Translations under genes and position numbers: made by a program | Shown here: piece after piece, positions 15,218 through 62,576 of the stretch | Layout of the letters: every line of letters starts with the position of its first letter | Position numbering within the stretch: position 1 is the first letter of the stretch | The notes under the pieces: generated by a model | What the model was told of the DNA's origin: nothing | Database searches by the model: none | Seen by the model: only the letters and a program-made list of their open reading frames with translations | From: Eledone cirrhosa | Lineage: Eukaryota | DNA length: 64,000 nt | Assembly (NCBI GenBank): GCA_964016885.1 | Contig: CAXHJY010000646.1 | Location: 9,057 to 73,056 of the forward strand | Direction: 5' to 3'

Positions 15218-15334
15218 ATACATATATATATATACATATATACATATATATATACATATATACATATATATACATATATACATATATATATATACATATA
15301 TATATATATACATATATATAAATATATATATATA

Positions 15335-16918: not shown

Positions 16919-17095
16919 CAGTATCGGTAGAGGGTCGGGCGCCATGCTTTGTAGCGTAGAGTTACGCCCCTTTATATGTTCTGAGTTCATATCCCTCCGA
17001 GGTTAACTTTGCCTTTCATCCTTACGGGGTCGATAAAATAAAGTACCAGTAATGTACTGGGATAAATGCTCACCTTGTGCCAAAAGTAGAAACAA
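16919..17095 (+). mobile_element. 5'-truncated SINE family A
   Basis: Same body as other family A copies; TSD ATTATTTGTCT. Confidence 0.88.
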
Positions 17096-18238: not shown

Positions 18239-18783
18239 CATGTATATATATATATGGTAACCCTACCAAGGTTTCTTGGTGAGGAGGGTGACTTTGGACA
18301 TCCTGCAGGACTAAAAACAAAACCTGTAAAAGGGCAAAGGAGCTCTTAAGAGTCAATGGCCATCCAAAATCACCGGGAGAGATGACCCCTTAGCCTTTGT
18401 CAAGGCAGAATTCTAGGAGAAGGAAAACTCTGATATAACACCTACAACCCTGATGGTATCCAATGATGTTGACTTGTTCTTCTTTTTGGTAAATATCATC
18501 TTGGTTAAGAGAGTGGGACTGGCTTTGTGCAGTGCCTTTGCTCACTATAAAAGCTTCACGGCACAGGCATTGCTTTATATCTGGAGATCTCTCTGCACTT
18601 GTCGTCACATGATACCATGGGCCCACCACTCAGTGTCAGTAATTGTCACAAGTGTAGTGTTTGTACCAGAGTTTTCAAGTCGCTGGCTGGACTAAAAAGT
18701 CACACTCGTTCAGCGCATCGGTAGGGGTTCTCCTACATGGATATAAAGTAGTGGCCGTACTCGAAAACGAGTTGGCAGCCACC

Positions 18784-19300: not shown

Positions 19301-19410
19301 GTATGTATATATATATATGTATATACATATATATGTATATATATATATATATATGTATGTATATATATATATGTATATACATATATATGTATATATATAT
19401 ATATGTATGT
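17595..19410. repeat. (AT)n/(ATGT)n microsatellite field with embedded elements
   Basis: Direct observation. Confidence 0.95.
18255..18790 (+). mobile_element. Internally deleted RTE derivative (5' UTR joined to a C2H2-encoding 3' end)
   Basis: The 5' part resembles 49998-50080, which precedes an RTE endonuclease. 18647-18724 encodes HKCSVCTRVFKSLAGLKSHTRSAHR*, followed by a CTCG-AAAA-CGAG hairpin and an (ATGT)n tail. Confidence 0.65.
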
Positions 19411-19538
19411 ACGTTATTCCGGGTTGAATCGGAGGTAACCACAGTAAGTAAGGTACTCAATACATAGCAGAGTATAAAAGTTTTAATATAGATTCAGATT
19501 CTACAGGACTAGAACTGTTTCATTCATTACAAATCATT
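19410..19538 (-). mobile_element. Fragment of the hammerhead family B repeat (3' half of the HHR plus tail)
   Basis: Reverse complement of 59515-59630. Confidence 0.7.
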
Positions 19539-26411: not shown

Positions 26412-26770
26412 ATCATCATCATTTTACGTCTACTTTTCCCTGCTTCCAAGGGTGGGACGGGAACTGATTCTGGCGTGATTTCTACAGCTGGATGCCCTTC
26501 CTAACACCAACCTCATTTACAGTGAGTGCTGGGTGCTTTTTTTCCGTGGCGCCTACACATCCACTTTACAGTGTGGGCTGGGTGCTTTTTTGCCGAGGCA
26601 CCTCCACGACCACTTTGCAGTGGAATGATAGGGACCCAGTCCCTATCATCTCATTTCTACAGCTGAGTAAACTGGAGCAATGTGAAATAAAGTGTCTTGC
26701 TCAAGGAAACAACACATCACCCGGTCTGAGAACTGACAACCTTTCGATTGCAAGGCCAATGCTTTAACCA
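26412..26770 (-). mobile_element. CORE-like SINE family B
   Basis: Reverse complement of the 15335 and 22251 elements. Confidence 0.88.
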
Positions 26771-26774
26771 TGTA

Positions 26775-27702
26775 GCAGCTGTGCTGGGACAGCAAGCAGT
26801 AAACTGCCACAGGAAACAAGTACCACCAATCTCTGGGAGGGCTCTGTAGAAACAGTAGACAGCTTCTGCTACCTAGGTGACCGAATTAGCAACGGAGGTG
26901 GGTGTTCAGAAAGTACAATAACTAGGGTAAGAACGGGATGGAAGAAGTTTAGGGAACTACTACCACTGCTAGCTGCAAAAGGCTTCTCCCTCAGAATGAA
27001 AGGCAGACTGTATGATGCGTGTATACGAACAGCAATGTTACATGGTAGTGAGACCTGGGCGCTGAAGGTGGAAGACTTACGTAGATTAGAGAGAAACGAA
27101 GCCTGCATGCTCCAATGGATGTGTAACAGTAATATATGCGAACGGCAAAGCATAAATGAATTGAGAGAGAGACTGAGCATAAGAGGAATCAAATGCTGTG
27201 TGCAGGAGAGGTGGTTGCGTTGGTATGGACATGTGATACGTATGAAGGATGACAGCTGCATAAAAAGGTGCAGAGCACTAGAAGTCATTGGAAACTGTGG
27301 AGTGGGGAGACCCAAGAAGACCTGGGATGAGGTGATAAAAGCCGACCTTACCCAATTACATCTCTCAAAAGTGATGACACACGACCGTGACCTCTGGCGT
27401 CACACAGTAATACAGAGTACCCGACCTCCCACGGGTACAAGCTGAAGCTTAAGCATATAGACAATATGCCCCCTCACCCTCCCACTGTAAAGTGGACGTG
27501 TAGGCGCCAAGGCAAAAAAGCACCCAGCACTCACTGTAAATGAGGTTGGTGTTAGGAAGGGCATCCAGCTGTAGAAATCAAGCCAAAATCAGTTCCTGTA
27601 TGAGCAAGACAAGGTCAGCCAACCAGTCACTGCCCACAACAGGACAACCCATCTAACCCATGCTAGCATGGAAGAACGGGTGTAAAATGGTGATGATGAT
27701 GA
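26775..27702 (+). mobile_element. RTE LINE 3' portion with 3' UTR (tail 2)
   Basis: VDSFCYLGD, KGRLYDACIRTAMLHGSETW, RWYGHV, GRPKKTW; (GAT)n tail. Confidence 0.92.
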
Positions 27703-27754
27703 TATATATATATATATATATGAATTTGTTTTGCAAGGTTTTTGATATGAAATT

Positions 27755-28182
27755 GTGTGTCGAAACAAATATTGTACTTATAAGAAGTGTGTTATATGTA
27801 AAATGAACCCCCAGATAAATTGTAAAACTAGAAATGTAGTCTATAGCATAAGATGTACAGAGGGTACTTGCATAAACATGACAACGACATACATAGGTGA
27901 GACAGCTCGAAGCATAGGAGAAAGAATAGACCAACACTGGGGGGAACTAAAAGGATAAAAAACGGTTCAGTACTATATGAACAAGCCAGACAAAGACATG
28001 ACGGTAATATAGACAATATAGAAATTAAAATAATATCTAAACATAGAAATGACTCAACAGGTAGGCAAATCAGAGAAGCAACTGAGATAGAACTAAGAAG
28101 ACCAAAGTTAAACAGAAAAAATGAATGGAAAAACAACAACCACCATACCCAAACAAACAATACTGACTTAAGGAAAATATAA
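27755..28182 (+). pseudogene. Penelope-like element GIY-YIG endonuclease remnant (frameshifted)
   Basis: C..KKCVIC..NCKTRNVVYSIRC...YIGETARSIGERIDQH, a frameshift near 27958, then GSVLYEQARQRH..RQIREATEIELRRPKLNRKNEW. Confidence 0.85.
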
Positions 28183-28408
28183 ATAAATAAATAAATAAAT
28201 ATATACACAAATACAATAACAATAAACGCATATAAACACACACACTAGTAAACAAAGATAGAATACAGAAATCAAAACACTCAAACGCGAACACACACAC
28301 CAAACATTATACATACACGCAAATACATGCGCAAAGACAGAGACAAGAAGAAATAAATAAATAAATAAAATGGCGTAGACATACAATACAATAGGAGGAA
28401 CATAATAA

Positions 28409-28452
28409 TACCACTGATGATGTTGCAGATGTGCAACGAAAGAACTTTGTTA
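28409..28452 (+). ncRNA. Hammerhead motif in the PLE 3' pseudo-LTR
   Basis: TACCA-CTGATGA-T-GTTGCA-GATG-TGCAAC-GAAAG-AA-CTT-TGTTA: 6-bp stem II, one mismatch in stem I. It lies about 230 bp downstream of the GIY-YIG stop on the same strand. Confidence 0.65.
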
Positions 28453-28777
28453 GACTATATATATATATTTATGTCTGTATTTTTAACTGTTGGTCAATCA
28501 ATGATAAACATTGATTGCTAAATAAATTAACTATGGAGATATAAAAGATACAGAAGTGAAAACCAACTAAACAGTGAGTGTGTTCCGTTATTATTTCTGA
28601 CAATTACAACAATATGACCCTCCCCAAGTATAACAATATATATATATATATATATGCAAATATATAAACAACATTTGGTTTATTTAGGAAGCATTCAGAA
28701 ATTAAAAAACATGTTTGCTACAATGCAGATAACTATAACAATAGTTGATAACTATGATTAAACATTTAACTAAATCA

Positions 28778-38720: not shown

Positions 38721-39151
38721 ATAAAATGTTAAAAAAATAATGAATAAAACAATGAAACAGTTCCTTATATTAAACAAAAAAAGTTCATTATTTAACGATC
38801 GTTTCTAGGACACATATGTGTTAGAATTGGCATGCATATTCAACAGATCTATGTACAAAATTATACAAAATTATACAAACTATCAAATATAATATACATA
38901 CCAACACATACATATGCCGTCTTCAGAAATAATTTTTTCTAATTATTTCTGAAGACGGCATATGTATGTGTTGGTATGTATATTATATTTGATAGTTTGT
39001 ATAATTTTGTATAATTTTGTACATAGATCTGTTGAATATGCATGCCAATTCTAACACATATATGTCCTAGAAACGATCGTTAAATAATGAACTTTTTTTG
39101 TTTAATATAAGGAACTGTTTCATTGTTTTATTCATTATTTTTTTAACATTT

Positions 39152-39154
<3 letters not shown>
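38721..39154. repeat. Near-perfect palindrome (214-bp arms, 6-nt loop) containing an extended hammerhead in each arm
   Basis: Arms 38721-38934 and 38941-39154 with one visible mismatch. HHR core CTGAAGA at 38949-38955 and GAAACGATCGTT at 39070-39081. Confidence 0.9.
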
Positions 39155-39233: not shown

Positions 39234-39594
39234 ATAGAAATATTAAAACAATGAAATTAAACACAAAACTGTTAATTCATAGTAAAACTCATTATTTTAC
39301 GATCGTTTCGGGGGGGGGGGGGGTAGTTCCCTGCATGTTCATTCTATTATTGATCTATGTAAAACATATTACAAAATATCATAGTAAGAAAAAATACATG
39401 CCGTAATTTCTGAAGACGGTGGGTAGTGAAAACGTATGTATTTTTTCTCACTATGATATTTTGTAACATATTTTACATAGATCAATAATAGAATGAACAT
39501 ACAGAGAACTAGCCCCCAGAAACGATCGTAAAATAATGTGTTTTACTATGAATTATCAGTTTTGTGTTTAATTTCATTGTTTTAATATTTCTAT
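39234..39594. repeat. Diverged palindrome of the same family with a hammerhead core
   Basis: CTGAAGA at 39410-39416, GAAACGATCGTA at 39519-39530; stem I ATTT/AAAT. Confidence 0.85.
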
Positions 39595-39797
39595 ATATAT
39601 TAAAATAACAGATTAAAGTTTAAGCAAAGAATCGCTGCTTTCACCCTTAACGGGATCTTCTGAAACTCTTTGGATTTTAGACTTCACATTTATTATTACT
39701 ATATATATATATATATATACACATGTATGTGTATATATGTGTATTTACACATACACTTGAAGGAGTTCTGTTGTTTCTGTGTTTCAAATGAAATAAT

Positions 39798-40068
39798 TGT
39801 TTCTACTTTTGGCACAAGGCCAGCAAATACCCAGTACTTTATTTTATCAACCCCGTAAGGATGAAAGACAAAGTTAACCTCGGTGGGATTTGAACTCGGA
39901 TCGTAAAGGGACATAACTATGCTGGAAAGCATGTCCGACCCTCTGCCAATTCTGCCAATCCACCAAATAATTGTTTCTACTTTAGGCACAAGGCCAGCAA
40001 TTACCCAGTGCATTACTGGTACTTTATTTTATCGACCCCGTAAGGATGAAAGGCAAATCAACCTCGGC
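39798..40068 (-). mobile_element. Tandem pair of SINE family A
   Basis: Two copies separated and flanked by AAATAAT. Confidence 0.88.
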
Positions 40069-41562: not shown

Positions 41563-41870
41563 GGATGAAAGGCAAAGCTAACCTCGGCGCGATTTGAATT
41601 CAGAACATAAAGGGCCATAACTCTATGCTGTAAAGCATGGTGTGCTCTACTGATACTGCCAATCCACTACTCTAATTTAATTGTTTCTACTTTTGGCACA
41701 AGGCCAGCAATTACCCCAGTACATTACTGGTACTTTATTTTATCGACCCCGTAAGGATGAAAGGCAAAGTTAACCTCGGCGGGATTTGAATTCAGAATGG
41801 CAAGGGCCGTAACTCTATGCATCAAAGCATGGCGTCCGACCCTCTACCGATACTGCCAATCCACTACCCT
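41563..41870 (-). mobile_element. Tandem pair of SINE family A
   Basis: Two copies, each followed by CTAATTTAAT. Confidence 0.88.
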
Positions 41871-42554
41871 AATTTAATAATATAACTTTCTCATTATTAT
41901 CTTTGGAACATAACAGAGTTTCTTACATAAATTTAAGATAGATTTTTTTAGTTTAATCTAACCACTTCAAAAGCAACATTTTGTATCAGAGAACCAGATG
42001 TTTCAAGTGATTTCATATGAAAAGAGTTACTACTTGATATCTGCATTATCTCCCTTTGGTACGTTACAGAAAAATAATTTACAGCATTGATTTCCAAACC
42101 TATTTTGTTACACTACACCTATATGATTTTTAAAAACATCACATAACTTATACCTACATTTTTCAGAGTCTCTCCACCACCCTAATTTTAATAAGATATT
42201 AAATGAAATTAAAATGTGTAAATATAGTTGCCATAATGCAGATAACTATAATAATAGTATATGATTCTAAATATTAACTGAACAAATCGAGTCAAGTTCT
42301 CCTGAACACTGATAAAGTGTGTCTCTTGTTCACATTTTTCCACCTTCTGGGGCACTCTACTCAGTTTATTCAACTATTATTTTTAAAGACCAAGTATTAA
42401 TATAGTTATTTACATTGTGGTCACTACATTTTCAAATTTCCAAATGATTCATAAGTCAACCAAATACAGGTTACACTTTTAGAGAGGAAAATTGTTTTGG
42501 AAAGAAAATTTATTCTCATAAAACAACAACAAAAGCAAAGAACAAGATACCGCA

Positions 42555-45500
42555 ATGGTAAACATTCCACTACAGTGGTGTGACATCCTCCACTGTGGTA
42601 AACATGCCACTTCAGTGGTGTGACATCCTCCACTGTGGTAAACATTCCACTTCAGTGGTGTGACATCCTCCACTGTGGTAAACATTCCACTTCAGTGGTG
42701 TGACATCCTCCACTGTGGTAAATATTCCACTTCAGTGGTGTGACATCCTCCATTGTGGTAAACATTCCACTTCAGTGGTGTGACATCCTCCACTGTGGTA
42801 AACATTGTACTTCAGTGGTGTGACATCCTCCACTGTGGTAAACATGCCACTTCAGTGGTGTGACATCCTCCATTGTGGTAAACATTCCACTTCACTGGTG
42901 TGACATCTTCCACTGTGGTAAACATTGTACTTCAGTGGTGTGACATCCTCCACTGTGGTAAACATTCCACTTCAGTGGTGTCACATCCTCCACTGTGGTA
43001 AACATTCCACTTCAGTGGTGTCACATCCTCCATTGTGGTAAACATTCCACTGCAGTGGTGTCACATCCTCCATTGTGGTAAATATTCCACTTCAGTGGTG
43101 TGACATCTTCCACTGTGGTAAACATTCCACTTCAGTGGTGTGACATCCTCCACTTCAGTGGTGTGACATCCTCCACTGTGGTAAACATTCCACTACAGTG
43201 GTGTGACATCCTCCACTGTGGTAAACATTGTACTTCAGTGGTGTGACATCCTCCACTGTGGTAAACATTCCACTTCAGTGGTGTCACATCTTCCACTGTG
43301 GTAAACATTCCACTTCAGTGGTGTCACATCCTCCACTGTAGTAAACATTCCACTACAGTGGTGTGACATCCTCCACTGTGGTAAACATTCCACTTCAGTG
43401 GTGTGACATCCTCCACTGTGGTAAACATTCCACTTCAGTGGTGTCACATCCTCCACTGTGGTAAACATTCCACTTCAGTGGTGTGACATCCTCCACTGTG
43501 GTAAACATTCCACTTCAGTGGTTTCACATCCTCCACTGTGGTAAACATTCCACTTCAGTGGTGTCACATCCTCCACTGTGGTAAACATTCCACTTCAGTG
43601 GTGTCACATCCTCCACTGTGGTAAACATTCCACTTCAGTGGTGTCACATCCTCCAATGTGGTAAACATGCCACTTCAGTGGTGTGACATCCTCCACTGTG
43701 GTAAACATTCCACTTCAGTGGAGTGACATCCTCCACTGTTGTAAACATTCCACTTCAGTGGTGTCACATCCTCCACTGTGGTAAACATTCCACTTCAGTG
43801 GTGTCACATCTTCCACTGTGGTAAACATTCCACTTCAGTGGTGTCACATCCTCCACTGTAGTAAACATTCCACTACAGTGGTGTGACATCCTCCACTGTG
43901 GTAAACATTCCACTTCAGTGGTGTGACATCCTCCACTGTGGTAAACATTCCACTTCAGTGGTGTGACATCCTCCACTGTGGTAAACATTCCACTTCAGTG
44001 GTGTGACATCCTCCACTGTGGTAAACATTCCACTTCAGTGGTGTGACATCCTCCACTGTGGTAAATATTCCACTTCAGCGGTGTGACATCCTCCACTGTG
44101 GTAAACATTCCACTTCAGTGGTGTGACATCCTCCACTGTGGTAAACATTCCACTTCAGTGGTGTGACATCCTCCACTGTGGTAAATATTCCACTTCAGTG
44201 GTGTGACATCCTCCACTGTGGTAAACATTCCACTTCAGTGGTGTGACATCCTCGACTGTGGTAAACATTCCACTTCAGTGGTGTGACATCCTCCACTGTG
44301 GTAAATATTCCACTTCAGTGGTGTGACATCCTCCACTGTGGTAAACATTGTACTTCAGTGGTGTGACATCCTCCACTGTGGTAAACATTCCACTTCAGTG
44401 GTGTCACATCCTCCACTGTGGTAAACATTCCACTTCAGTGGTGTGACATCCTCCACTGTGGTAAACATTCCACTTCAGTGGTGTGACATCCTCCACTGTG
44501 GTAAACATGCCACTTCAGTGGTGTGACATCCTCCACTGTGGTAAACATGCCACTTCAGTGGTGTGACATCCTCCACTGTGGTAAACATGCCACTTCAGTG
44601 GTGTGACATCCTCCACTGTGGTAAACATTCCACTTCAGTGGTGTGACATCCTCCATTGTGGTAAACATTCCACTTCAGTGGTGTGACATCCTCCATTGTG
44701 GTAAACATTCCACTTCAGTGGTGTGACATCCTCCACTGTGGTAAACATGACACTTCAGTGGTGTCACATCCTCCACTGTGGTAAACATGCCACTTCAGTG
44801 GTGTGACATCCTCCACTGTGGTAAACATTCCACTTCAGTGGTGGTAAATATTCCACTTCAGTTGTGTGACATCCTCCACTGTGGTAAACATTCCACTTCA
44901 GTGGTGTGACATCCTCCACTGTGGTAAACATTGTACTTCAGTGGTGTGACATCCTCCACTGTGGTAAACATGCCACTTCAGTGGTGTGACATCCTCCACT
45001 GTGGTAAATATTCCACTTCAGTGGTGTCACATCCTCCACTGTGGTAAACATGCCACTTCAGTGGTGTGACATCCTCCACTGTGGTAAACATTCCACTTCA
45101 GTGGTGTGACATCCTCGACTGTGGTAAACATGCCACTTCAGTGGTGTGACATCCTCCACTGTGGTAAATATTCCACTTCAGTGGTGTGACATCCTCCATT
45201 GTGGTAAACATTGTACTTCAGTGGTGTGACATCTTCTACTGTGTTAAACATTCCACTTCAGTGGTGTCACATCCTCCATTGTGGTAAACATTGTACTTCA
45301 GTGGTGTGACATCCTCCACTGTGGTAAACATTCCACTTCAGTGGTGTGACATCCTCCACTGTGGTAAACATTCCACTTCAGTGGTGTGACATCCTCCACT
45401 GTGGTAAACATTCCACTTCAGTGGTGTGACATCTTCCACTGTGGTAAACATTCCACTTCAGTGGTGTGACATCCTCCATTGTGGTAAACATTGTACTTCA

Positions 45501-46400
45501 GTGGTGTGACATCTTCTACTGTGGTAAACATTCCACTTCAGTGGTGTCACATCCTCCATTGTGGTAAACATTGTACTTCAGTGGTGTGACATCCTCCACT
45601 GTGGTAAACATTCCACTTCAGTGGTGTGACATCCTCCACTGTGGTAAACATTCCACTTCAGTGGTGTCACATCCTCCACTGTGGTAAACATGCCACTTCA
45701 GTGGTGTGACATCCTCCACTGTGGTAAACATTCCACTTCAGTGGTGTGACATCTTCCACTGTGGTAAACATTCCACTTCAGTGGTGTGACATCCTCCACT
45801 GTGGTAAACATTCCACTTCAGTGGTGTGACATCCTCCCCTGTGGTAAACACTGTACTTCAGTGGTGTGACATCCTCCACTGTGGTAAATATTCCACTTCA
45901 GTGGTGTGACATCTTCCACTGTGGTAAACATTCCACTTCAGTGGTGTGACATCCTCCACTGTGGTAAACATTCCACTTCAGTGGTGTGACATCTTCCACT
46001 GTGGTAAACATTCCACTTCAGTGGTGTGACATCCTCCATTGTGGTAAACATTGTACTTCAGTGGTGTGACATCTTCTACTGTGGTAAACATTCCACTTCA
46101 GTGGTGTGACATCCTCCCCTGTGGTAAACACTGTACTTCAGTGGTGTGACATCCTCCACTGTGGTAAACATTCCACTTCAGTGGTGTGACATCCTCCACT
46201 GTGGTAAACACTGTACTTCAGTGGTGTGACATCCTCCCCTGTGGTAAACACTGTACTTCAGTGGTGTGACATCCTCCACTGTGGTAAATATTCCACTTCA
46301 GTGGTGTGACATCTTCTACTGTGGTAAACATTCCACTTCAGTGGTGTGACATCTTCCACTGTGGTAAACATTCCACTTCAGTGGTGTGACATCCTCGACT
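42555..46400. repeat. 40-bp minisatellite (about 96 units)
   Basis: Unit AACATTCCACTTCAGTGGTGTGACATCCTCCACTGTGGTA with internal palindromes CCACT-TC-AGTGG and CCAC-T-GTGG. Confidence 0.97.
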
Positions 46401-49967: not shown

Positions 49968-50650
49968 TGCAGGATGTCCAAAAATATTGATTTTGGGGTG
50001 ATTTTTGGACATCCTGCAGGATGAAAAACCAAACTTGTTTAAAAAGGTGGAATAACTCATGAAAGTCAACGGCCTTCCAATACCTGAGGTGAGTTGTTTA
50101 TTGGGTTTGTGGCAATATTCTGCACCAACCCTTTGTTATCAACAGGTCCAAGGAGTGTGGCTGACCCTACACAAGCCTTCACCACTGTAAACAATTCTTT
50201 TGTGTAGGTAACACAACAACTCTACCAGTTCACTAACACAAAGCTCAATGGTAAGACAGCAAAGGTGATGGGGACAAGTAAAGGGTATTACTGGAAGTCC
50301 TTAGCTGGAGCTCTACACAGTGGCGATTATCAGGTGTTAGCCATTGGTGCACAAAATATGAGTAATTTGTGCTGTTTGTGTCCTCTGATGGTGACAAAGC
50401 AGGTCTTTTTAGATATAGCACTGCTTTACCTACACAGAGTGGGGACAATAAAAGGGGCCCTAAACAAATACCTACTCAATACTTTAATTTGGCAGTCAAC
50501 CACCACTGTCTGGTTATCCAAATATGGGGTCAAAACAAAAGGCACTTAACTTTTGGTTCCTGGAATCTAAGAACACTCCAAGACAGTGACTCCAACTTGG
50601 AACAAAGATCAGCCCTGTAATGTACTCAACAGATACAGTGTTGATATCTG
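49968..50650 (+). mobile_element. RTE (BovB-like) 5' UTR and endonuclease start
   Basis: LTFGSWNLRTLQD....EQRSAL / LNRYSVDI matches the APE N-terminal W-N-x-R-T-L motif. Confidence 0.75.
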
Positions 50651-51268
50651 TACAGTGAGACCTGACTGTCCCATCTGTAATGCACTCAACAGATACAGTG
50701 TTGATATCTGTACAGTAAGACCTGACTGTCCCATCTGTAATGCACTCAACAGATACAGTGTTGATATCTGTACAGTAAGACCTGACTTTCCCATCTGTAA
50801 TGCACTCAACAGATACAGTGTTGATATCTGTACAGTAAGACCTGACTTTCCCATCTGTAATGCACTCAACAGATACAGTGTTGATATCTGTACAGTGAGA
50901 CCTGACTGTCCCATCTGTAATGTACTCAACAGATACAGTGTTGATATCTGTGCAGTGAGACCTGACTGTCCCATCTGTAATGCACTCAACAGATACAGTG
51001 TTGATATCTGTACAGTAAGACCCGACTGTCCCATCTGTAATGCATTCAACAGATACAGTGTTGATATCTGTACAGTAAGACCTGACTGTCCCATCTGTAA
51101 TGTACTCAACAGATACAGTGTTGATATCTGTACAGTAAGACCTGACTGTCCCATCTGTAATGTACTCAACAGATACAGTGTTGATATCTGTACAGTAAGA
51201 CCTGACTGTCCCATCTGTAATGCACTCAACAGATACTCTGTTGATATCTGTACAGTAAGACCTGACTG
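50615..51268. repeat. 60-bp minisatellite (11 units) amplified from RTE endonuclease sequence
   Basis: Unit CTGTAATGCACTCAACAGATACAGTGTTGATATCTGTACAGTAAGACCTGACTGTCCCAT. Confidence 0.95.
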
Positions 51269-51417
51269 GGATAATTGCTGGCCTTGTGCCAAAAATAGAA
51301 ACAATTATGTATGTATTCAGCTAATATATCATCCTCATCATCATCATCGTCATTTTACGTCCACTTGTAAAAAAAAATGATGATGATGATGATATGTTAG
51401 ATGAATACATACATAAC

Positions 51418-51803
51418 TGTTTCTACTTTTGGCACAAGGCCAGCTATTATCCCAGTGCATTACTGGTACTTTATTTTATCGACCCCGTAAGCATGAAAGG
51501 CAAAGTTAATCTCGGTGGGATTTGAACTCAGAACGTAAAGGGCCGTAACTCAGTGCTTGAAATCATGGCGTCCGACCCTCTATTGATACTGCCAATCCAC
51601 AACTACATACCTAATTGTTTCTACGTTTGGCACAAGGCCAGCAATTATCCCAGTGCATTACTGGTACTTTATTTCATCGACCCCGTAAGGATGAAAGGCA
51701 AAGTTAACCTCGGCGGGATTTGAACTCAGAATGGCAAGGGGCGTAACTCTATGCTTCAAATCATGGCGTCCAACCCTCTACCAATACTGCCAATTCACCG
51801 CCC
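51418..51803 (-). mobile_element. Tandem pair of SINE family A
   Basis: TACATAC(A/C)TAA occurs before, between and after the two copies. Confidence 0.9.
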
Positions 51804-51961
51804 TACATACATAATAATAGATTTGAAGGGTCACCTAATGTTTATACATTGTGAGTATTGTAAAACTCAGTATCTCATAGTGACTTCTATTTAGCTTCAC
51901 ACCTGCTGTAAATGCTTGCACTCTTGGATACTTGTTGAAATACAGCTGGAAAGAGATGGGT

Positions 51962-52032
51962 GATGTGTTGGTGTAATGGTAGCACAGTGGTCGCGATAAC
52001 CAAAGATGTGGATTCGACTCCCATGTACGTCA
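51962..52032 (+). pseudogene. tRNA-like sequence (pseudogene or SINE head)
   Basis: Cloverleaf GATGTGT / D-arm GTGT-AATGGTA-GCAC / TGGT-CGCGATA-ACCA / GTGGA-TTCGACT-CCCAT / GTACGTC. Non-canonical G33 and several mismatches; T5 run downstream. Confidence 0.5.
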
Positions 52033-52140
52033 ATACTCATCTTTTTCCATTTATCTGAGGATTCTAAACCCCATTATCAGGCTAAAATTCCTTTAGTCAA
52101 TAATACGGTGAAAGCTATATATATATATTTTTTTTTTTTT

Positions 52141-52640
52141 TTAATATAGATGAGATTCTACAGGGCTAGAACTGTTTCATTCTTCAGAAATTATCAGGAA
52201 TCTGACTGTCCAAGTAAATGTGGTGGTATTTATATATTTTCTGGTGGTAGGAGAGGGTGGGGAGTGGGATGGGTGGAGGTCATTGGTTGAGAGAAAAGGG
52301 AATTCATTAAAAGCTAATTCTTTAAAACTATAATTTATATTTAGAGTGACAAAGGCAGAAAGAATTCAATAAACAAGTTCAAATTGTGGTGCCACTCCTT
52401 ATTGTCAAGTTTCTCTTAAGCTAACAATGCCTAGATTTCAGGTGTCTATAAGATGGTTGGGGTCAGTCATGGTTGATGGATTTAAAGAAAAGGGAAATTC
52501 TTTAAAAGCTAATTCTTTAAAGTTCCACTTAGAGTGACAAAGGCAGAAAGAATTCTATAAACCAGTTCAAATATTGGGTGCCTATCATTATTGTCATATT
52601 TCTCTTAAGCTATATTGCAGGAGTCAACAGACATATTCAC
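52141..52640 (-). mobile_element. Hammerhead family B repeat, copy 1 (HHR 52153-52203)
   Basis: AGATTC-CTGATAA-TTTCTGAAGAAT-GAA-ACAG..CTGT-A-GAATCT with G8>A; the body is homologous to 59065-59630. Confidence 0.7.
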
Positions 52641-52722
52641 AAACACACACACACATATATAAATATACACATATACAAACATATACAATCACATATACAT
52701 ATATATACATATATATATATAC

Positions 52723-52797
<75 letters not shown>

Positions 52798-52855
52798 TAT
52801 ATGTATACACACACACATATATATATATAATATATATATATACACACATATATAC

Positions 52856-52888
<33 letters not shown>

Positions 52889-52890
<2 letters not shown>

Positions 52891-53830
52891 TGAGATTCTA
52901 CAGGACTAGAACAGTTTCATTCTTTAGAAATCATCAGGAATCTGGGTATCAAAAGATAAATATGGTATTTATAGGTCTCTTCGGGGGGTAGGAGAGGGTA
53001 GGGAGTGGGATGGGTGGAGGTCATTGGTTGAAAGAAAAGGGAATTCATTAAAAGCTTATTCTTTAAAGCTATAATTTATATTTAGAGTAACAAAGGCAGA
53101 AAGAATTCTATAAACAAATTCAGAATGGGGTGCCACTCCTTATGTTTAAGTTTCTCTTAAGCTAATAATTGTTTCTACTTTTTGGCACAAGGCCAGCAAT
53201 TATCCCAGTACATTACCTAATAATTGTTTCTACTTTAGGCACAAGGCCAGCAATTATCCAGTGCATTACTGGTACTTTATTTTATCGACCCCGTAAGGAT
53301 GAAAGGCAAAGTCAACCTCGGCGGGATTTGAACTCAGATCGTAAAGGGACGTAACTATGCTGGAAACATGGCGTCCGACCTTCTACCGATACTGCCAATC
53401 CACCGCCCTAATAATTGTTTCTACATTTGGCACAAGGCCAGCAATTACCCAGTGTATTACTGGTACTTTATTTTATCGACCCCAAAAGGATGAAAGGCAA
53501 AGTTAACCTCGGCGCGTTTTGAACTCAGAATGGCAAGGACCGTAACTCTATGCGTCAAAGCATGGCGTCCGACCCTCTACCGATACTGCCAATCCACCGC
53601 CCTAATAATGCCTAGATTTCAGGTGTCTATAAGATGGTTGGGGTCAGTCATGGTTGATGGATTTAAAGAAAATGAAAATTCTTTAAAAGCTAATTCTTTA
53701 AGGTTCTACATAGAGTGACAATGGCCAAGAGAATTCTATAGACCAGTTCAAAATATTGAGTGCCTATCATACCATTATCTTCAAGTTTCTCTTACACTAT
53801 AGTCCAAATGTCAACAGACACATTCACAAA
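52889..53830 (-). mobile_element. Hammerhead family B repeat, copy 2 (HHR 52893-52943), interrupted by SINEs
   Basis: Intact CTGATGA core; direct repeat of 52141-52640. Confidence 0.7.
53170..53602 (-). mobile_element. Three tandem SINE family A copies (one truncated)
   Basis: Each copy is separated by CTAATAAT; the empty site is visible at 52421-52430. Confidence 0.9.
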
Positions 53831-53864
53831 CACACTCACTCACACACTCGCGCGCGCACCCACG

Positions 53865-53896
<32 letters not shown>

Positions 53897-54171
53897 CATA
53901 CATACATACATACACACACATACACACATTCATATATATACACATACATACATATGTATGAGTGTATGTATATATGAATGTGTGTATATATATGTGTGTG
54001 TATATATATATATATATGTGTGTGTATATATATATATATGTGTGTATATATATATGTGTAAGTATAAATATATATATATATGTGTATATATATATGTGTG
54101 TGTATATATATATATATGTGTGTGTATATATATATGTGTAAGTATAAATATATATATATGTGTATATATAT

Positions 54172-54662
54172 AGGCAGACCTAGAAAAACCTGGGACGAGC
54201 TGATAAACTCCGACCTCACACACTTACACCTCTCCAAGACAATGTCACTGGACCGAGACCTTTGGCGGTACTCAGTAACAGAGAAGACCCGCCTTGCCAG
54301 TAGGCATTTCTAACAAAATACACCCCGTCCCGCCACCACCCCCACCCCATCCACACCACCCCGTTCTATGTAAAGTTATGTTGGTGCCGCGCCATCCAGG
54401 CCGAAACAAATGAGATCGTGTAGGTGTCACGACAAAAAAACACACAGTCCACGCTGTAATGTGGCCGTGTAGGCAACACGGTAAAAACCTCCCAGACCCA
54501 CACTGTAAATGTGGTTGGTGTTAGGAAGGGCATCCAACTGTAGAAAACCTGCCAGACAGTCCTATGCGAGCAAGACAATCACTCTTGCCTCAAGTGGGAC
54601 TACCCCCGTCCAAACCCATGCAAGCGTGGAACACGGACGTTAAACGTTGATGATGATGATGA
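54172..54662 (+). mobile_element. RTE LINE 3' fragment
   Basis: [21 protein letters not shown], plus the 3' UTR and (GAT)n tail. Confidence 0.9.
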
Positions 54663-54694
54663 TATATGTATATGTATTTGTGTATATATATATG

Positions 54695-54725
<31 letters not shown>

Positions 54726-54760
54726 GTGCTTGTTTATATATGTGTGTGTATATATATATA

Positions 54761-54795
<35 letters not shown>

Positions 54796-54801
54796 ATATA
54801 A

Positions 54802-54851
<50 letters not shown>

Positions 54852-54857
<6 letters not shown>

Positions 54858-55232
54858 TAATAAAAACAATGAAATAAAAAAAAAAGAACAAATTCCTTAT
54901 ATTAAAAACTTCATTCTTTAACGATCGTTTCTGGGATGTATATGTGTGTTGGTATGTATATCATATAGATCTATGTAAAAATATTACAAATTATCAGAGG
55001 AAATATACATACATTCACATATACATGCCGAGCCGACCTCATCATTTCTGAGGATGGCATATATATGTGAAGGTATGTACATTTCCTCTGATAATTTGTA
55101 ATATTTTTACATAGATCTATATGATATACATACCAACACACATATACATCCCAGAAACGATCATAAAATGATGAACTTTTCAATATGAGGAACTTGTTCT
55201 TTGTTTTTATTTCATTGTTTTTATTAATTTAT
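54852..55232. repeat. Palindrome of the extended-hammerhead family
   Basis: CTGAGGA at 55048-55054, GAAACGATCATA at 55154-55165; 9-bp stem I TCATCATTT/AAATGATGA. Confidence 0.85.
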
Positions 55233-55307
55233 CTAGACTCCGTTTATCATGAAAAGAGAAGATGCATTCAAAAATTTTCGATAAAAATCATATATATTAT
55301 TTATATA

Positions 55308-56631
55308 TCATCATCATCATCATCATCATCATCCATGTTTAACGTCCACTTTCCACACAAGCATGGGTTAGACGGGAGTTGTCCCACTTGAGGCAAGGTT
55401 GGTCGGGTGACCGTGTCTCACTCATATAGGACTATCTAGCAGGTTTGCTATGGCTGTATGCCCTTCCTAACACCAACTACATTTACAGTGTGGAACTGGG
55501 AACTTTTTACCGTGTTACCTACACGACCACATTACAGCGTGGACTGTGTGTTTTTTTCTCGTGACACCTACACGATCTCGATCTCATTTATCTCATTTAT
55601 TTGGACTGGATGTTGTGGTACCAACTTTACAGAGAGGGGGTGTTGTTGGTGGGAGTGGGAGGATAGGGTAGGGGTAGTGGATTGGGGTGTATATTTGGTT
55701 AAGAGGTGCCTACTGACTGTAGGTTTCATTTTGTACATAGGCAAGGCGGGTCTTCTGTATTACTGCGTAGTGCCAAAGATCTCGGTCCAGAGACATTGTC
55801 TTAGAGAGGTGCAAGTGTATAAGGTCGGAATTTATCAGATCGTCCCAGGTTTTTCTGGGTCTACCTACTCCGTAACTACCATCAATTTTGATCGCCGTGT
55901 ACTTTTTTAGACAGCTGTCGTCTTTCATGCGCATCACGTGGCCATACCAACGTAGTCTTCTCTCGAGTAAACAGCATCTGATCCCTCTTATACCTAATTT
56001 CTCACTTAGTTCATTTATGCTTTGCCGTTCACGTATGTTACTATTACACATCCAACGGAGCATGCATGCTTCATTCCTTTCCAGTCTGCGTAGGTCCTCT
56101 GCACGTAATGCCCATGTCTCACTGCCATGTAGCATTGCTGTTCGTATACAAGCATCATACAATCTGCCTTTTATTTTTAGAGAGAAACCTTTAGTGACCA
56201 ATAGCGGTATAAGCTCTCTGAACTTTTTCCATCCCGTTCTGACTCTGGCTACTGTACTTTCAGAGCACCCTCCTCCACTGCTGATTTCGTCACCCAGGTA
56301 ACGGAAAGTGTCTACTATTTCTATAGAACCATCTGGGCAGTAGAAGGAGCTAGTATCCTGTGGGCGCTTGCTACTTATTGCACCTGAGCATCGGCCACAT
56401 ATAAAGTCTACGTTCTTAGCTTACCTGTGATCCTACTACATCTTTTATGCACCCATACTTTGCATTTGGGACATAAAATTGAATTTCTGCCTACTCCTTT
56501 CCTACACACTGAGCAAGGTCATTTCCCTGAGGGTACCTGTGCCCTATTTTCCTTTCTACAAACTAGGACTTTAGTCTTAGACAAGTTAACTTTAAGGCCT
56601 TTTCATTCTAGGCCATGCTTCCATGTTTGGA
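55308..56631 (-). mobile_element. 5'-truncated RTE LINE with PHD-like insert
   Basis: VNLSKTKVL, PCSVC..CPKC..WVHKRC..CGRC, FRYLGD, KGRLYDAC, RRLRWYGHV. Confidence 0.92.
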
Positions 56632-56649
56632 ATATATATATATATATAT

Positions 56650-56718
<69 letters not shown>

Positions 56719-56727
56719 TATATAATA

Positions 56728-57106
56728 TATGATATTAAATAAATGGAAACTATATTTATAAAACCATATTTATTTCGTTATATATATTTCAGGGATATCA
56801 TATTAACAATATATTATGCCTTCTTCAGACAAAATACAATATAAACAGTCTTATAAATAAATAGATACGACATACCTTTCAATCACCTTGCATTTGGGAG
56901 GTTGATTTGGCAGTAATCAACTGCCAAATCAACCTCCCAAATGCAAGGTGATTGAAAGGTATGTCGTATCTATTTATTTATAAGACTGTTTATATTGTAT
57001 TTTGTCTGAAGAAGGCATAATATATTGTTAATATGATATCCCTGAAATATATATAACGAAATAAATATGGTTTTATAAATATAGTTTCCATTTATTTAAT
57101 ATCATA
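56728..57106. repeat. Apparently perfect palindrome (187-bp arms, 5-nt loop) with a hammerhead in each arm
   Basis: TATTTTGT-CTGAAGA (57006)-stem II-GAAAT-ATAT-ATA-ACGAAATA (57063). Confidence 0.9.
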
Positions 57107-57216
57107 AATATACTCCAAATACTTGTTGAGTGCTTTTATATCAGTTATAAATATTTACTCGTTGTTAACCCAACAATTTAAATATAACTTTCCATCTATA
57201 TAGAATATATATATAA

Positions 57217-57262
<46 letters not shown>

Positions 57263-57486
57263 TAATATATATATATACATATATAATATATATATATACA
57301 TATATAATATATATACATATATATATATACATATATAATATATATATATACATATATAATATATATATATACATATATAATATATATATATACATATATA
57401 ATATATATACATATATACATATATAATATATATATATACATATATACGTATATACATATATAATATATATATATATATATATATAC

Positions 57487-57525
<39 letters not shown>

Positions 57526-57531
<6 letters not shown>

Positions 57532-58089
57532 TAAAATAACAGATTAAAGTTTAAGCAAAGAATCGCTGCTTTCACCCTTAACGGGATCTGAAACTAACAA
57601 AGTCAATCTGTAAACGCAGAACTGGATAATTAAAAAAAACGTTGCAACCGGAGGAAGACAGGAAGACGATACTTTGGTTCATGGAAACGTTCCCTGGCAA
57701 AGAACGGGAAAAAACGAATATAATACGTCATTAATAGGAGCGGTGAAAAACAATTACGCGCAAAGACAGAACCACGTTTGTGGTATAAAAGAGGTCGTAG
57801 ACTAATGTTCTCTTAGGTGGTTCATAGAGACGTTCTCTGGCAATGAACGAAAAAAACGAAGATAATAAGTCATATGTGGAGCGTGGAGAACAATAGCACG
57901 CAAAGACAAAACCACGTAAATGGTATAGCAGAAGTCGTAGACTAAAATTCTAACTAGGAGACCAAATGAATCTCCGCTACAGAGTTAAGAACAAAGTAAA
58001 TAAATACAATACAGAAGTAATATAAATAAATAAATACATACACGCAAACAAATATGTACATACACAATTAATCTGTTATTTTAATAAAT
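57526..58089. mobile_element. Element with about 21-bp terminal inverted repeats and an internal about 144-bp duplication
   Basis: TTTATTAAAATAACAGATTAA...TTAATCTGTTATTTTAATAAA; its left end is also present at 39600-39666. Confidence 0.6.
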
Positions 58090-58173
58090 ATTTGCTCTAC
58101 GGTTCTTATATATTTGATATATATTTATCATTATCGAGCCCTCTTTGGATTTTAGTCTTGAAATTTATTATTA

Positions 58174-58225
<52 letters not shown>

Positions 58226-58302
58226 CGGAGGAAATGTGGTAAGGAACCAGGTTCAACCATAACGCACCAAAGTACTCAATACTTAGGGTAGTAGAGTGGG
58301 TA

Positions 58303-58415
58303 ATAGGAACGAGTAGGACCCCGACGGCTGAGCTCAAGCCGTTTCCACGGATAATTCTGGATGAGAATTAACTGTTGAAACAGCTTGAGCTCAGCCGTCG
58401 GGGTCCTACTTGTTC

Positions 58416-58419
<4 letters not shown>
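58303..58419. repeat. GC-rich hairpin (about 50-bp arms)
   Basis: ATAGGAAC-GAGTAGGACCCCGACGGCTGAGCTCAAGC...GCTTGAGCTCAGCCGTCGGGGTCCTACTTGTTCCTAT. Confidence 0.85.
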
Positions 58420-58457
<38 letters not shown>

Positions 58458-58800
58458 TATATATATTATATATTATATATATTATATATTATATATATGA
58501 TATATAAATATGATATATATATATTATATATATATTTGATATATTATATATTATATATAAATATATATGATATATTATATATAAATATATATGATATATA
58601 TATATATATAGATATATATATATATATATTATATATTTATATTATATATATATATATATATGTGTATATATATATATGTGTGTGTGTGTATATATGTATG
58701 TATGTATATATATATATATATGTATGTATGTATGTATGTATATGTGTATATATGTATATGTGTGTATATATATATATGTGTGTGTGTATGTGTGTGTATA

Positions 58801-58847
<47 letters not shown>

Positions 58848-58954
58848 GTATGTACGTGTGTATATATGTGTGTGTATGTGTGTGTATATATGTGTACATG
58901 TGTGTGTGTATATATATATATATATATGTGTGTGTATATATATATGTGTATGTA

Positions 58955-59009
<55 letters not shown>

Positions 59010-59064
59010 TGATATGTATATATATATATCTGTATATGTGTTTATGGGTGCACGCGAGTGTGTT

Positions 59065-59630
59065 TGTGAATGTGTCTGTTGATTCTTGGCATATAGTTGA
59101 ATAGTTTAACAGAAAGTTGAAGATAATTGTATGATATGCACTCAATATTTTGAATTTGTCTACAGAATTCTCTAAACCTTTGTCACTTAGTAGAACCTTA
59201 AAGAATTTAGCTTTAAATCTATCAACCATGACTGACCCCCACTGATCTTATAGACACCTGTTAGCTTAAGAGAAACTTAATAATAAGGAGTGGCACCCCA
59301 TCCTGAACCTGTTTATAGAATTCTTTCTGCCTTTGTTAATCTAAAAATAAAAATAAAAATGAACTATAGATTTGTAGAATTAGCTTTTAATGAATTCCCT
59401 TTTCTATCAACCAATGACCTCCACCCATCCCACTTCCTACCTTCTCCTACCCCCTGAAGAGACCTATAAATACCATACTTATTTTTTGATACCCAGATTC
59501 CTGATGACTTCTAAAGAATGAAACGGTTCTAGTCCTGTAGAATCTCATCTATATTAAAACTTTTATACTCTGCAATGTATTGAGTATCTTACTTACTGTG
59601 GTTACCTCCGATTCAACACGGAATAACGTA
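59065..59630 (+). mobile_element. Hammerhead family B repeat, copy 3
   Basis: CCAAT at 59411 and TATAAA at 59465, then the HHR at 59495-59545 and a conserved tail. Confidence 0.7.
59495..59545 (+). ncRNA. Type I hammerhead ribozyme with three stems
   Basis: AGATTC-CTGATGA-C-TTCT-AA-AGAA-T-GAA-ACGG-TTCTAGTC-CTGT-A-GAATCT; predicted cleavage after GUA. Confidence 0.7.
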
Positions 59631-59661
59631 TATATTATATATATATATATTATATATATAT

Positions 59662-59705
<44 letters not shown>

Positions 59706-59714
59706 TTATATATA

Positions 59715-62497
59715 TCATCATCATCATCATTATCATCATCAACGTTTAACGTCCGTGTTCCACGCTTGCATGGGTTTGGACGGGGGTTTTCCCACTTGAT
59801 GCAAGAGTGATTGTCTTGCTCGCATAGGACTGTCTGGCGGGTTTTCTACAGCTGGATGCCTTTCCTAACACCAAGCACATTTACAGTGTGGGGCTGGGAG
59901 GTTTTTACCGTGTTGCCTACATGGCCACATTACAGCGTGGACTGTGTGTTTTTTTGTCGTGACACCTACGCGACCTCATTTATTTAGGACTGGATGTTGT
60001 TGTACCAACATAACTTTACAGCGAAAGGGGCGGTGTGGATGGGGTGGGGAGGGTGGGACGGCGGTGTATTTTGTTAGAGATGCCTACTGTCTGTAGTAGG
60101 TTTTACTTTGTATTTAGGTAAGGCGCGTCTTCTCTATTACTGAGTACCGCCAAAGGTCTCGGTCCAGTGACATTGTCTTGGAGAGGTGTAAGTGTGTGAG
60201 GTCAGAATTTATCAGCTCGTCCCAGGTTTTTCTGGGTCTGCCTACTCCGTGGCTACCGTCTATCTTTATTGCCCTGCACTTTGTTATACAGCTATCGTCT
60301 TTCATGCGCATCACGTGACCATACCAACGTAGCCTTCTCTCGAGTAAACAACATCTGATCCCTCTTATTTCTAATTTTTTCCTTAGTTCGTTTATGCTTT
60401 GCCGTTCACGTCATCGTATATCCTCCACGAGCATGCAACTACTCTTCTGCACACAGGTCTCAGCGTCTCACTGCATGCAACATTGCTGTTCGTATCAGGC
60501 ATCATACAACCTGCCTTTCATTTTTAGGGAGAACCCTTTAGCGGCAATAGTGGTATAAGCTCTCTGAACTTTTTCCATCAGTTCGACTCTAGCTACTGTA
60601 CTTTCAGAGCACCTCCCACTGCTGATACTGGTCACCAGTAACGAAGCTGTCCACAATCTATTTGAACCCTCTAGCTGCACTTTCAAGAGCAACACTCCTG
60701 CCACTTGCTGCTCCTAGGCAACAAGCTGTCGGGCACTTGGCTGCTACTTATTGCACCAGAGCACCGGCCACATGTAAAATCTATGTTCTTTAGTTACCTG
60801 ACTTGCATCCCACTACATCTTTTATGCACCCATACTTTGCATTTGGGACACACTACAATTCGAGTCTACCCTTCCTACGCATTCTTTCCTACAACACTGA
60901 GAACTGGCCATTCCCGGAAGGGACCGCGCCTTATTTCTTTCCTACAAACTAGAACTTTGTCTTAGCCAGGTTGATTCTAGGCCGTGCTTCCATGTTTGGA
61001 ATTTCTTCTCTAGCTCGGTCATTGATTCAGCTATGAGTGTTAGGTCATCTGCGTATAGGAGTTCCCATGGGCAGCCGGTCTTGAACTCCTCTGTTACAGC
61101 CTGAAGGGCAATAATAAATAGTAGGGGGCTGAGAACAGAGCCCTGATGGACGCCAACTTTTACGCTAAACACTTCACTATATTCGTTGTTAATTCTAACC
61201 TTGCTGACTGTTTCTTTATACATGGCTTGTATAGCTCTCACAGGCCATTCGTCAACACCTAGTTTTCTAAGAGCCCACCAGATAATGGAACGGGGAACTC
61301 TGTCGAAGGCTTTCTCCAAGTCGACAAAAGCTAAGTATACGGGTTTACTTTTAGCTAGGTACTGCTCCTGTAGTTGTCGTACAATGAAAAGAGCGTCTGT
61401 CGTACTTTTGCCTGACACAAACCCGAACTGCATTTCATCTAGATCAATTCTCTCTCTGATTAGTTGCGCTATTACTTTTTCCGTGACCTTCATGACCTGG
61501 TCGATTAATTTAATGCCTCTATAGTTACTCCTATCTAGGGCATCTCCTTTACCCTTATAACAGTTAACGATGATGCTGCTACGCCAGTCCTTCGGAACAA
61601 CCCCATTCTGTACGACTTGGTTAACTATCCGGGTGACCATGGTGTGTCCCAACGTTCCAGAAGCTTTCAGCATTTCAGCAACTATTTCCGAAGGCCCAGC
61701 CACCTTACCCGTCTTCATATCCTTGATTGCCTTACTTATTATACTACCCTCGACTAACACTGCTGGTCCCTCTATTGGGTCGATGTAGGGGAGACTGTCT
61801 TTCTCCATTTATTCTCCTCATTTAGTAGCCTTTCATAGTGACACTTCCAAGCTACCTTCTTATCAGCGTCGGTGATGGCAAGTACGCCGTCATCATTAAG
61901 TACACACTTCTCCCCGACAATATCACGGTTTTCCTTGACACATTGCCTAGCAATCCTGAACACCTCACGTTTTTGGTCCTCGCGTTGTAGAACATGCTTG
62001 AACTTTCTTTTCTCTGCTTCCCTTCTTGCGAAGTACACTTGTCTCCTAGCTTCCCTCCTGGCCACTTGATAGTCTTCTCTACTTCCCCCATCCCGCCATA
62101 CTTTCCAAGCCTGCTTTTTGGCCTTAATTGACCCCTCTACCTTACTGTTCCACCACCATGTTACTCTCCTGCCTACAGGCCTGCTCCAGCCACAGACTTC
62201 GTCTGCCGCCATCAGCAGGTTTGCTTTCAGGAATTCCCATTGCTCCTCTATATTGTACGACTCTAATTGCTCTTCCTTACTGTGGAAAGCATCAAGTAAT
62301 ATGCTTTTAAATTTGTTTCTGGCTGTGAGGTCCTTTAGCTTCCATATTTTTCTCCTGAGGATAGTCCTCTTCTGTTGTCTAGTACGACTCGTCCTGACTA
62401 TTAGGTCGCTAATTATCAGTCTATGTTGGGAGGTGCATTCTTCATGGGGGAGGGATTTAGTGTTTACAACAGTCACTCTGTCACGTCTTCTGGTAAG
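59715..62497 (-). mobile_element. Long RTE LINE remnant (end of endonuclease, RT, PHD-like insert, 3' UTR)
   Basis: QHRLII, TWWWN, GKVAGPS, SNYRGI, QFGF, FVDLEKAFDRVP, GVHQGSVLSP, LLYADDL; frameshifts. Confidence 0.95.
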
Positions 62498-62576
62498 GAT
62501 ATAAATATATATATATATATATATATAATATTTATATATATGTATATATATTATATAAATATATATATATATATAT

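Follow-up and report, generated by a model that had tools for sequence, protein, structure and literature searches.

Type I hammerhead ribozymes have been described near the end of the pseudo-LTRs (pLTRs) of PLE retrotransposons, such as Poseidon PAc of Anolis (PMC11167929) and the Neptune/Naiad-type elements (PMC8557442). In the Anolis element, reverse transcription is reported to begin at either of two internal sites of the RNA, which delimit the optional tail; AT-rich DNA is cut on both strands, and uncut RNA is the main template (PMC11167929). General traits of PLEs include a tail confined to one end, 5'-truncated arms in inverted orientation and a (TA)n bias (PMC8557442); new insertions tend to fall within or next to older copies (PMC6765202), and dimeric cleavage has been proposed for PLE hammerheads (PMC4209133). 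The non-LTR retrozymes of metazoans (coral, mussel, axolotl) are non-coding, PLE-related repeats of low GC content with a canonical-size type I hammerhead that is likely dimer-dependent (PMC7229834; bioRxiv 10.64898/2026.07.22.740005). In invertebrates they are described as highly self-paired units of 170-400 nt (PMC7229834), within an overall retrozyme range of 51-972 bp, and two consecutive units with complete hammerheads serve as the criterion for a retrozyme (bioRxiv 10.64898/2026.07.22.740005).

The 64-kb window, i.e. the whole stretch of DNA that was analysed, contains five copies of a hammerhead-bearing unit, c1 to c5, recovered by BLAST and a DNA profile (Table 1); nhmmer (E<=10) gave no copy beyond these within the window. 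BLAST, nhmmer and a hammerhead descriptor agreed with the original prediction of two direct minus-strand copies of about 500 bp (c2 and c1) with hammerheads 740 nt apart. The three further copies that had been proposed were found as c3, c4 and c5, the last of which consists of two opposed arms, and the internal duplication of about 190 bp was recovered as 190 columns with 75.8% identity in c1. Three features were absent from that prediction: the insertion in c2, the microsatellite of about 240 nt between the two copies and the loss of the tail in both of them. An identical 8-mer flanks the insertion (53162-53169 and 53602-53609), with c1 representing the empty site, and the inserted sequence of about 440 bp consists of some 2.3 tandem units of a repeat of about 195 bp, which we take to be SINE-like. 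No identity for this repeat was obtained from the description of one SINE superfamily in PMC4824008.

Table 1. Features of the hammerhead-bearing copies c1 to c5 and of related elements in the 64-kb window.
Feature	Positions	Strand	Remarks
c1	52139-52648	-	pLTR-like unit of ~510 bp: duplicated upstream region, promoter motifs, hammerhead; without 3' tail
c1, 3' end			~20 nt past cleavage site, in A-run and (TA)n
c1, predicted Pol II promoter	52229-52288	-	CCAAT box 52280-52288, C-rich stretch, TATA 52229-52234, 31 nt before stem I
c1, hammerhead	52153-52203	-	type I; core G8>A; predicted inactive; 52158 is first base after cleavage site
Microsatellite between c2 and c1	52649-52886		(TC)n/(TA)n/(CA)n, ~240 nt, without tail sequence
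c2, 3' half	52887-53161	-	has promoter motifs; stops ~11 nt past cleavage site
c2, hammerhead	52893-52943	-	type I; core intact; U-U mismatch in helix III
c2, promoter motifs (predicted)		-	CCAAT box 53021-53029; TATA 52968-52973
c2, insertion	53162-53609	-	~2.3 tandem units of ~195-bp SINE-like repeat, ~440 bp
c2, 5' half	53602-53835	-	
Microsatellite at c2 5' end	53836-54172		(TG)n/(TA)n; same tract type at start of c1 and c3
c3	59058-59630	+	most complete unit; tail 59560-59630, then (TA)n
c3, promoter motifs (predicted)		+	CCAAT box 59409-59417; TATA 59465-59470
c3, hammerhead	59495-59545	+	core intact
c4	19410-19537	-	5'-truncated inside hammerhead core; full tail; (TA)n on either side
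c5, tailed arm	8646-8730	-	diverged subfamily; ends in (TA)n
c5, inverted tail-less arm	8731-8800	+	starts 3 nt before predicted start site; ends ~20 nt past cleavage site
c5, hammerhead	8735-8783	+	uncut; C3>U
Minimal-hammerhead family	6362-6835 and 14286-14821	-	cores 6476 and 14400; 94% identical over 337 nt; tail ends in microsatellite
Hairpin with truncated hammerhead-like core	58226-58420		near-perfect palindromic helix III; 75-nt tail
Hairpin with a hammerhead per arm	56725-57109 (region 56725-57200)		190-bp inverted repeat, 99%; hammerheads 57006 (+) and 56828 (-)
Long-helix-II hairpins, one family	38721-39154, 39234-39594 and 54849-55235		hammerhead-like core
5'-truncated coding PLE in (TA)n	27720-28600	+	cysteine-rich linker, GIY-YIG endonuclease, simple-repeat 3' region, hammerhead core

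The window is microsatellite-rich, with 116 tandem-repeat rows, and holds many broken LINE reverse transcriptase frames. It resembles octopus DNA, and a weak mollusc lead came from an endonuclease fragment nearby. The SINE-like repeat is abundant in it (2916-3102, 16316-17100, 39792-40068, 41563-41873, 51265-51815 and 53162-53609), often as short tandems or inverted pairs. Two tRNA-like heads above the Rfam gathering score (51940-52116 and 15333-15390, both on the plus strand) are probably SINE heads; the former ends in the (TA)n tract adjoining c1. The broken LINE fragments (7277-8629, 19946-21421, 26768-27445, 55710-56420 and 60942-62575) gave reverse transcriptase, endonuclease and PHD-finger matches, and two close relatives (79%; P0024 and P0039), labelled bacterial in public sets, are probably host contamination. 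Large homogeneous minisatellite arrays lie at 1-1750, 2210-5274, 9726-13856, 42556-46400 and 50615-51268 (periods 43, 60, 80, 40 and 60), and an isolated C2H2 zinc-finger match at 18551-18721 (+; E 6e-5) was under the curated cut-off.

The c2-c1 locus is probably a pair of decayed PLE 3' ends (pLTRs) of a (TA)n-targeting family, inserted side by side in separate events, and not a retrozyme array. The first indication comes from the ends of the copies. Three of them (c3, c4 and the tailed arm of c5) run on to a common 3' end, which adjoins (TA)n and lies about 90 nt beyond the cleavage site; the other three ends (c1, c2 and the inverted arm of c5) lie 11-20 nt past it. The tail thus delimited is about 70 nt long, against 30-40 nt in the described PLEs. 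None of the direct copies begins or ends at the cleavage site, and the junction of c5 is ambiguous. An inversion of c5 starting at the cleavage site was considered and dropped, as stem I gives a 5-bp microhomology and the preceding bases agree with those upstream in c2 and c3. One copy of the five (c5) has an inverted 5'-truncated arm adjoining a direct copy. The end points follow the tail/no-tail and inverted-arm pattern of PLEs and not the cleavage site. An optional tail with two 3' end points, an inverted 5'-truncated tail-less arm, 5' truncation, insertion into AT-rich microsatellites and an uncut genomic ribozyme are all shared with the PLE pLTRs reported in PMC11167929 and PMC8557442.

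A (TA)n-type tract abuts all five copies at one or both ends, against a background of 6.6% of non-run positions that lie within 12 nt of such a run; target-site duplications are unreadable in (TA)n. All long copies (c1, c2 and c3) start at a (TG/TA)n tract, and beyond this 5' microsatellite only simple repeats, and no unique sequence, are common to c2 and c3. Such a common 5' start fits an autonomous element cut short at a microsatellite within it as well as the true boundary of a non-autonomous unit.

The relation between c1, c2 and c3 provides the second indication. Among 462 ungapped columns, from which the c2 insertion and both copies of its 8-mer were excluded, 385 were identical, 34 were private to c1, 10 to c2 and 24 to c3, and 9 differed in all three copies. 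Because sister copies should show equal private counts, the 34 changes of c1 against the 10 of c2 (p=0.0004) show that the two are not sisters. The imbalance persisted when the promoter spacer was dropped (437 columns; 26 versus 9, p=0.006) and when gap-adjacent columns were dropped as well (377 columns; 24 versus 7, p=0.003). At 90.7%, the identity of c2 to the distant c3 exceeds that to its neighbour c1 (88.5%). The two copies are too different for sisters and therefore likely represent two separate insertions; their unequal divergence could also reflect gene conversion on one copy. An origin of the pair by local DNA duplication or by unequal crossover between microsatellites, with no second retrotransposition, would be in line with the (TA)n flanks and the missing tail of both copies, but the closer relation of c2 to c3, the unequal private changes and the different 3' ends of c1 and c2 make it highly improbable.

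The retrozyme-type tandem of the original prediction was not borne out. In a head-to-tail array the tail would lie between the c2 hammerhead and c1, where only the microsatellite is present, and c2 is moreover interrupted by the SINE-like insertion. No homogeneous head-to-tail array of complete units was found in the 64-kb window, a 740-nt unit being beyond the reach of the tandem repeat finder (period limit 500). The distance of 740 nt between the cleavage sites of c2 and c1 is above the 170-400 nt of invertebrate retrozymes, and the body of the unit is no more structured than shuffled sequences (z +0.9 for c1 and +0.35 for c3, 40 shuffles each). As regards two consecutive units with complete hammerheads, both c1 (G8A) and c2 (helix III mismatch) fall short. 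The copies resemble metazoan retrozymes in being non-coding, of low GC content and PLE-related and in their canonical-size, likely dimer-dependent type I hammerhead, but differ from those described in PMC7229834 and bioRxiv 10.64898/2026.07.22.740005 in that they form no homogeneous tandem, are non-sister copies joined by a microsatellite, carry damaged ribozymes and are not highly self-paired.

A full type I hammerhead is present in four copies (c1, c2, c3 and c5): stem I has 5-6 bp, helix II is weak and mismatched at its base, and helix III, with 4 bp, closes an 8-nt loop. It is of canonical size, unlike the minimal type of PLEs, and shares with HHR_Amex2 of axolotl a U-U pair at the helix II base (PMC7229834). 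A strict descriptor gave 6 matches in the window and none in each of 50 shuffles; two of the matches belong to this family (c2 and c3), as c1 (G8A) and c5 (C3U) fail the exact core. With a looser descriptor 12 matches were obtained (shuffle mean 2.4, maximum 5, 30 shuffles), half of which are AT-rich noise. Rfam reported no hammerhead at the gathering threshold in the window, nor at E<=10 in 50000-61000; its miRNA matches were rejected as microsatellites or hairpins below threshold. Free folds of the four full hammerheads did not adopt the active fold and gave no significant z-score, which for motifs so small says little either for or against.

The palindrome formed by helix III is imperfect, with self-duplex energies of -11.2, -11.4 and -14.2 kcal/mol against -1.4, -0.7 and -2.0 kcal/mol for the hairpin (c1, c3 and c5, respectively); in c2, with its U-U mismatch, the self-duplex reaches only -3.6 kcal/mol. 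With these calculated energies, the palindrome fits the dimer cleavage proposed for PLE hammerheads. The ACAG/CTGT helix III that had been predicted is intact in c1, c4 and c5 only, since c3 has a G-U pair and c2 the mismatch. Covariation in stem I, another element of that prediction, came down to one pair in one copy and was reached by 126 of 500 shuffles, which is not significant (5 copies). The predicted G8>A was found in c1, where it breaks the C3-G8 pair; in the Anolis element, a single change at either of the two positions is reported to abolish cleavage (PMC11167929). With lesions in both hammerheads, the suspected inactivity of the locus is likely.

These lesions also bear on the idea that c2-c1 is or was a working two-unit retrozyme, in which the c2 promoter would give an RNA with dimer-folded hammerheads and a 740-nt monomer able to circularise. 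The promoter-hammerhead-740 nt-hammerhead geometry is real, the promoter motifs of c2 are intact and helix III is suited to dimer pairing. Against this, the core of c1 carries G8A, the mismatch in c2 helix III weakens its self-duplex to -3.6 kcal/mol, the copies are 88.5% identical and not sisters, and the 740-nt monomer would be without a tail and about one third microsatellite. Such a retrozyme is very unlikely to have existed here.

Counted from the first base of hammerhead stem I as +1, each of the three long copies has an NF-Y-type CCAAT box at -85/-86, a TATA box at -30/-31 and, at +1 itself, an initiator-like motif; the CCAAT and TATAAA motifs of the original prediction are found in all three. 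Nowhere else in the window does the whole arrangement recur, and none of 5000 shuffles of c3 reproduced it, a result that overstates the significance, as the pattern was chosen after seeing the sequence. Between TATA and +1 the spacer sequence of c1 has diverged and the spacing is kept. A promoter at the hammerhead, as predicted from these motifs, would make the pLTR work like a retroviral U3-R, and because it would fire at the hammerhead, the body would be transcribed only from an upstream unit. Similarly, in the Sm-alpha SINE-like repeats of Schistosoma and in newt satellite 2 a promoter is followed by a hammerhead, and tandems are needed because a lone copy is unable to transcribe the body that it carries (PMC6765202); Sm-alpha, as described there, uses Pol III and forms true tandems, whereas the c1-c5 family has a predicted TATA-type promoter, seen in c1-c3, and PLE-like ends. 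Penelope of Drosophila virilis also has a promoter within the pLTR that can drive a downstream copy, but that promoter is reported to be internal and to lack a TATA box, and an intron follows 46 bp behind the start site (PMC2377424), while the predicted CCAAT, TATA and initiator elements of c1-c3 lie upstream and are aimed at the first hammerhead base. A literature search covering few subscription papers gave no description of a Penelope pLTR with a TATA promoter aimed at the hammerhead. The c1-c5 family may already be catalogued in Repbase or Dfam.

Hairpin insertions may bear on the RNA start. In four of six, namely c5 and the three long-helix-II hairpins, the forward arm begins at stem I or immediately ahead of it, 7-9 nt before the core; three of these four come from another family. 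In the remaining two the forward arm starts about 89 nt upstream or inside the ribozyme. We infer that the template RNA of the hairpins began at stem I and was uncut. Alternatively, microhomology between the stem I arms could have caused these starts.

The window contains another five families with a hammerhead or hammerhead-like motif that share the same PLE-end build, and they support the reading of c1-c5 as PLE ends. A short tail motif of the minimal-hammerhead family resembles that of the c1-c5 family, and the tail of the hairpin at 58226-58420 has a 10-nt motif in common with the c3 and c4 tail. The hairpin at 56725-57200, in which stem I has 8 bp and only one of the arms carries a tail (about 95 nt), is probably a young insertion. 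In the long-helix-II hairpins, whose hammerhead-like core is atypical, the helix II region measures about 110-120 nt, helix III is palindromic, stem I has 7 bp, the tail is on one arm only and the forward arms start at stem I. The element at 27720-28600 shows what a 5'-truncated coding PLE looks like in the host genome. Its GIY-YIG remnant (27746-28182) carries one frameshift (Pfam E 7e-4; profile E 7e-28), and a hammerhead core at about 28413, some 230 nt behind the remnant, was found by eye and missed by the descriptors. Two longer relatives show reverse-transcriptase-like motifs by eye. No DNA similarity to the c1-c5 family was detectable in this element.

The repeat itself is non-coding, hammerhead-bearing and PLE-related, in agreement with the original prediction of a non-coding, PLE-related unit; its longest non-microsatellite reading frames reach at most 74 aa. 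Two ATGs inside the hammerhead each run into a stop within 5 codons, whereas the frame of PAc starts inside the hammerhead (PMC11167929). Unlike in the described PLE pLTRs, no linked reading frame was found in the window. Pfam searches of 289 frames (284 stop-to-stop frames of at least 45 aa left after large arrays and low-complexity sequence had been filtered out, and 5 short frames) revealed no reverse transcriptase or GIY-YIG remnant beside c1-c5 and a single GIY-YIG match, at 27.7 kb. A HMMER search with this GIY-YIG fragment returned 70 relatives, of which 68 were used and 2 with repeated matches were dropped; a word-indexed search with the same fragment gave no match. In tblastn with the 68 PLE-like proteins the best E value in 52-54 kb was 0.18, and tblastn and a profile built from them found only the 27.7-kb remnant in the window, although these queries are relatives of one endonuclease and other PLE clades may be missed. 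An endonuclease remnant suspected at 6900-7290 was supported neither by Pfam nor by the PLE-protein profile. Most PLE copies are truncated.

Because no coding sequence adjoins any of the copies, there is room for a non-autonomous master array elsewhere. In that case c1-c5 would derive from a non-autonomous PLE derivative, true retrozyme arrays at other places would make monomers or circles, and the copies in the window would be their dispersed, mostly dead offspring. Two exact-pattern scans covering a prokaryotic genome collection gave 0 matches. The 5' boundary common to the three long copies, the canonical size of the hammerhead and the need of an upstream unit for body transcription, given the predicted promoter at the hammerhead, are in favour of such a derivative. 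A retrozyme-like master array gains plausibility from the view that retrozymes appear to derive from pLTRs and to have many monomers in dispersed positions (bioRxiv 10.64898/2026.07.22.740005). On the other hand, the 64 kb contain no true head-to-tail array, the copies end at PLE tail sites and not at the cleavage site, the body is not more structured than shuffled sequence, and the unit of more than 570 nt plus microsatellite would be above the 170-400 nt of invertebrates, though inside the 51-972 bp range. Taken together, this origin is rather unlikely.

The reading of the locus as two PLE ends has its own difficulties. The shared start tract of the three long copies also fits a unit-length non-autonomous element, and the canonical-size hammerhead with its axolotl-like U-U pair, a predicted TATA promoter unlike that of Drosophila Penelope and the 70-nt tail speak against it. 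Under the PLE-end reading, the predicted promoter of an upstream pLTR (CCAAT, TATA, initiator) would give an RNA that begins with the first hammerhead base and runs through the tail and the element into the next pLTR. A PLE protein would then nick AT-rich (TA)n DNA, and reverse transcription would start inside the RNA, about 20 or 90 nt past the cleavage site, giving tail-less or tailed copies. Copying would cross the uncut ribozyme and, in long copies, would end at the (TG/TA)n tract of the element, which could anneal to the (TA)n target. In this manner c1 and c2 may have arisen as tail-less products of different source copies that landed in one tract, with the SINE-like insertion in c2 and the mutation of both ribozymes presumably following later.

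The c1/c2 locus is ordinary debris of a common retrotransposon class. What sets c1-c3 apart is the predicted TATA-type promoter, from which transcription would begin with the first ribozyme base. The role of the hammerhead in PLEs is described as open (PMC8557442) and it is reported to be dispensable in vitro (PMC11167929). It is tentatively proposed, as a possible but doubtful scheme, that the PLE family of c1-c5 has a U3-R-like end (duplicated enhancer, NF-Y, TATA, initiator) starting capped RNA at stem I, that the ribozyme is a dimer-dependent switch removing the cap 45 nt in, that uncut RNA is the template, that hairpin insertions record the RNA 5' end and that chance neighbours of the c2-c1 type give birth to retrozymes. 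If RNA does start at the ribozyme's first base, the ribozyme would take on the role of a switch for cap removal. A further suggestion from the window is that hairpin insertions may map the 5' ends of PLE RNAs from DNA alone. Finally, a concrete path by which a pLTR might turn into a retrozyme can be read from it: if the U3-R reading is true, two independent pLTR insertions would give the order promoter-ribozyme-unit-ribozyme in one step.
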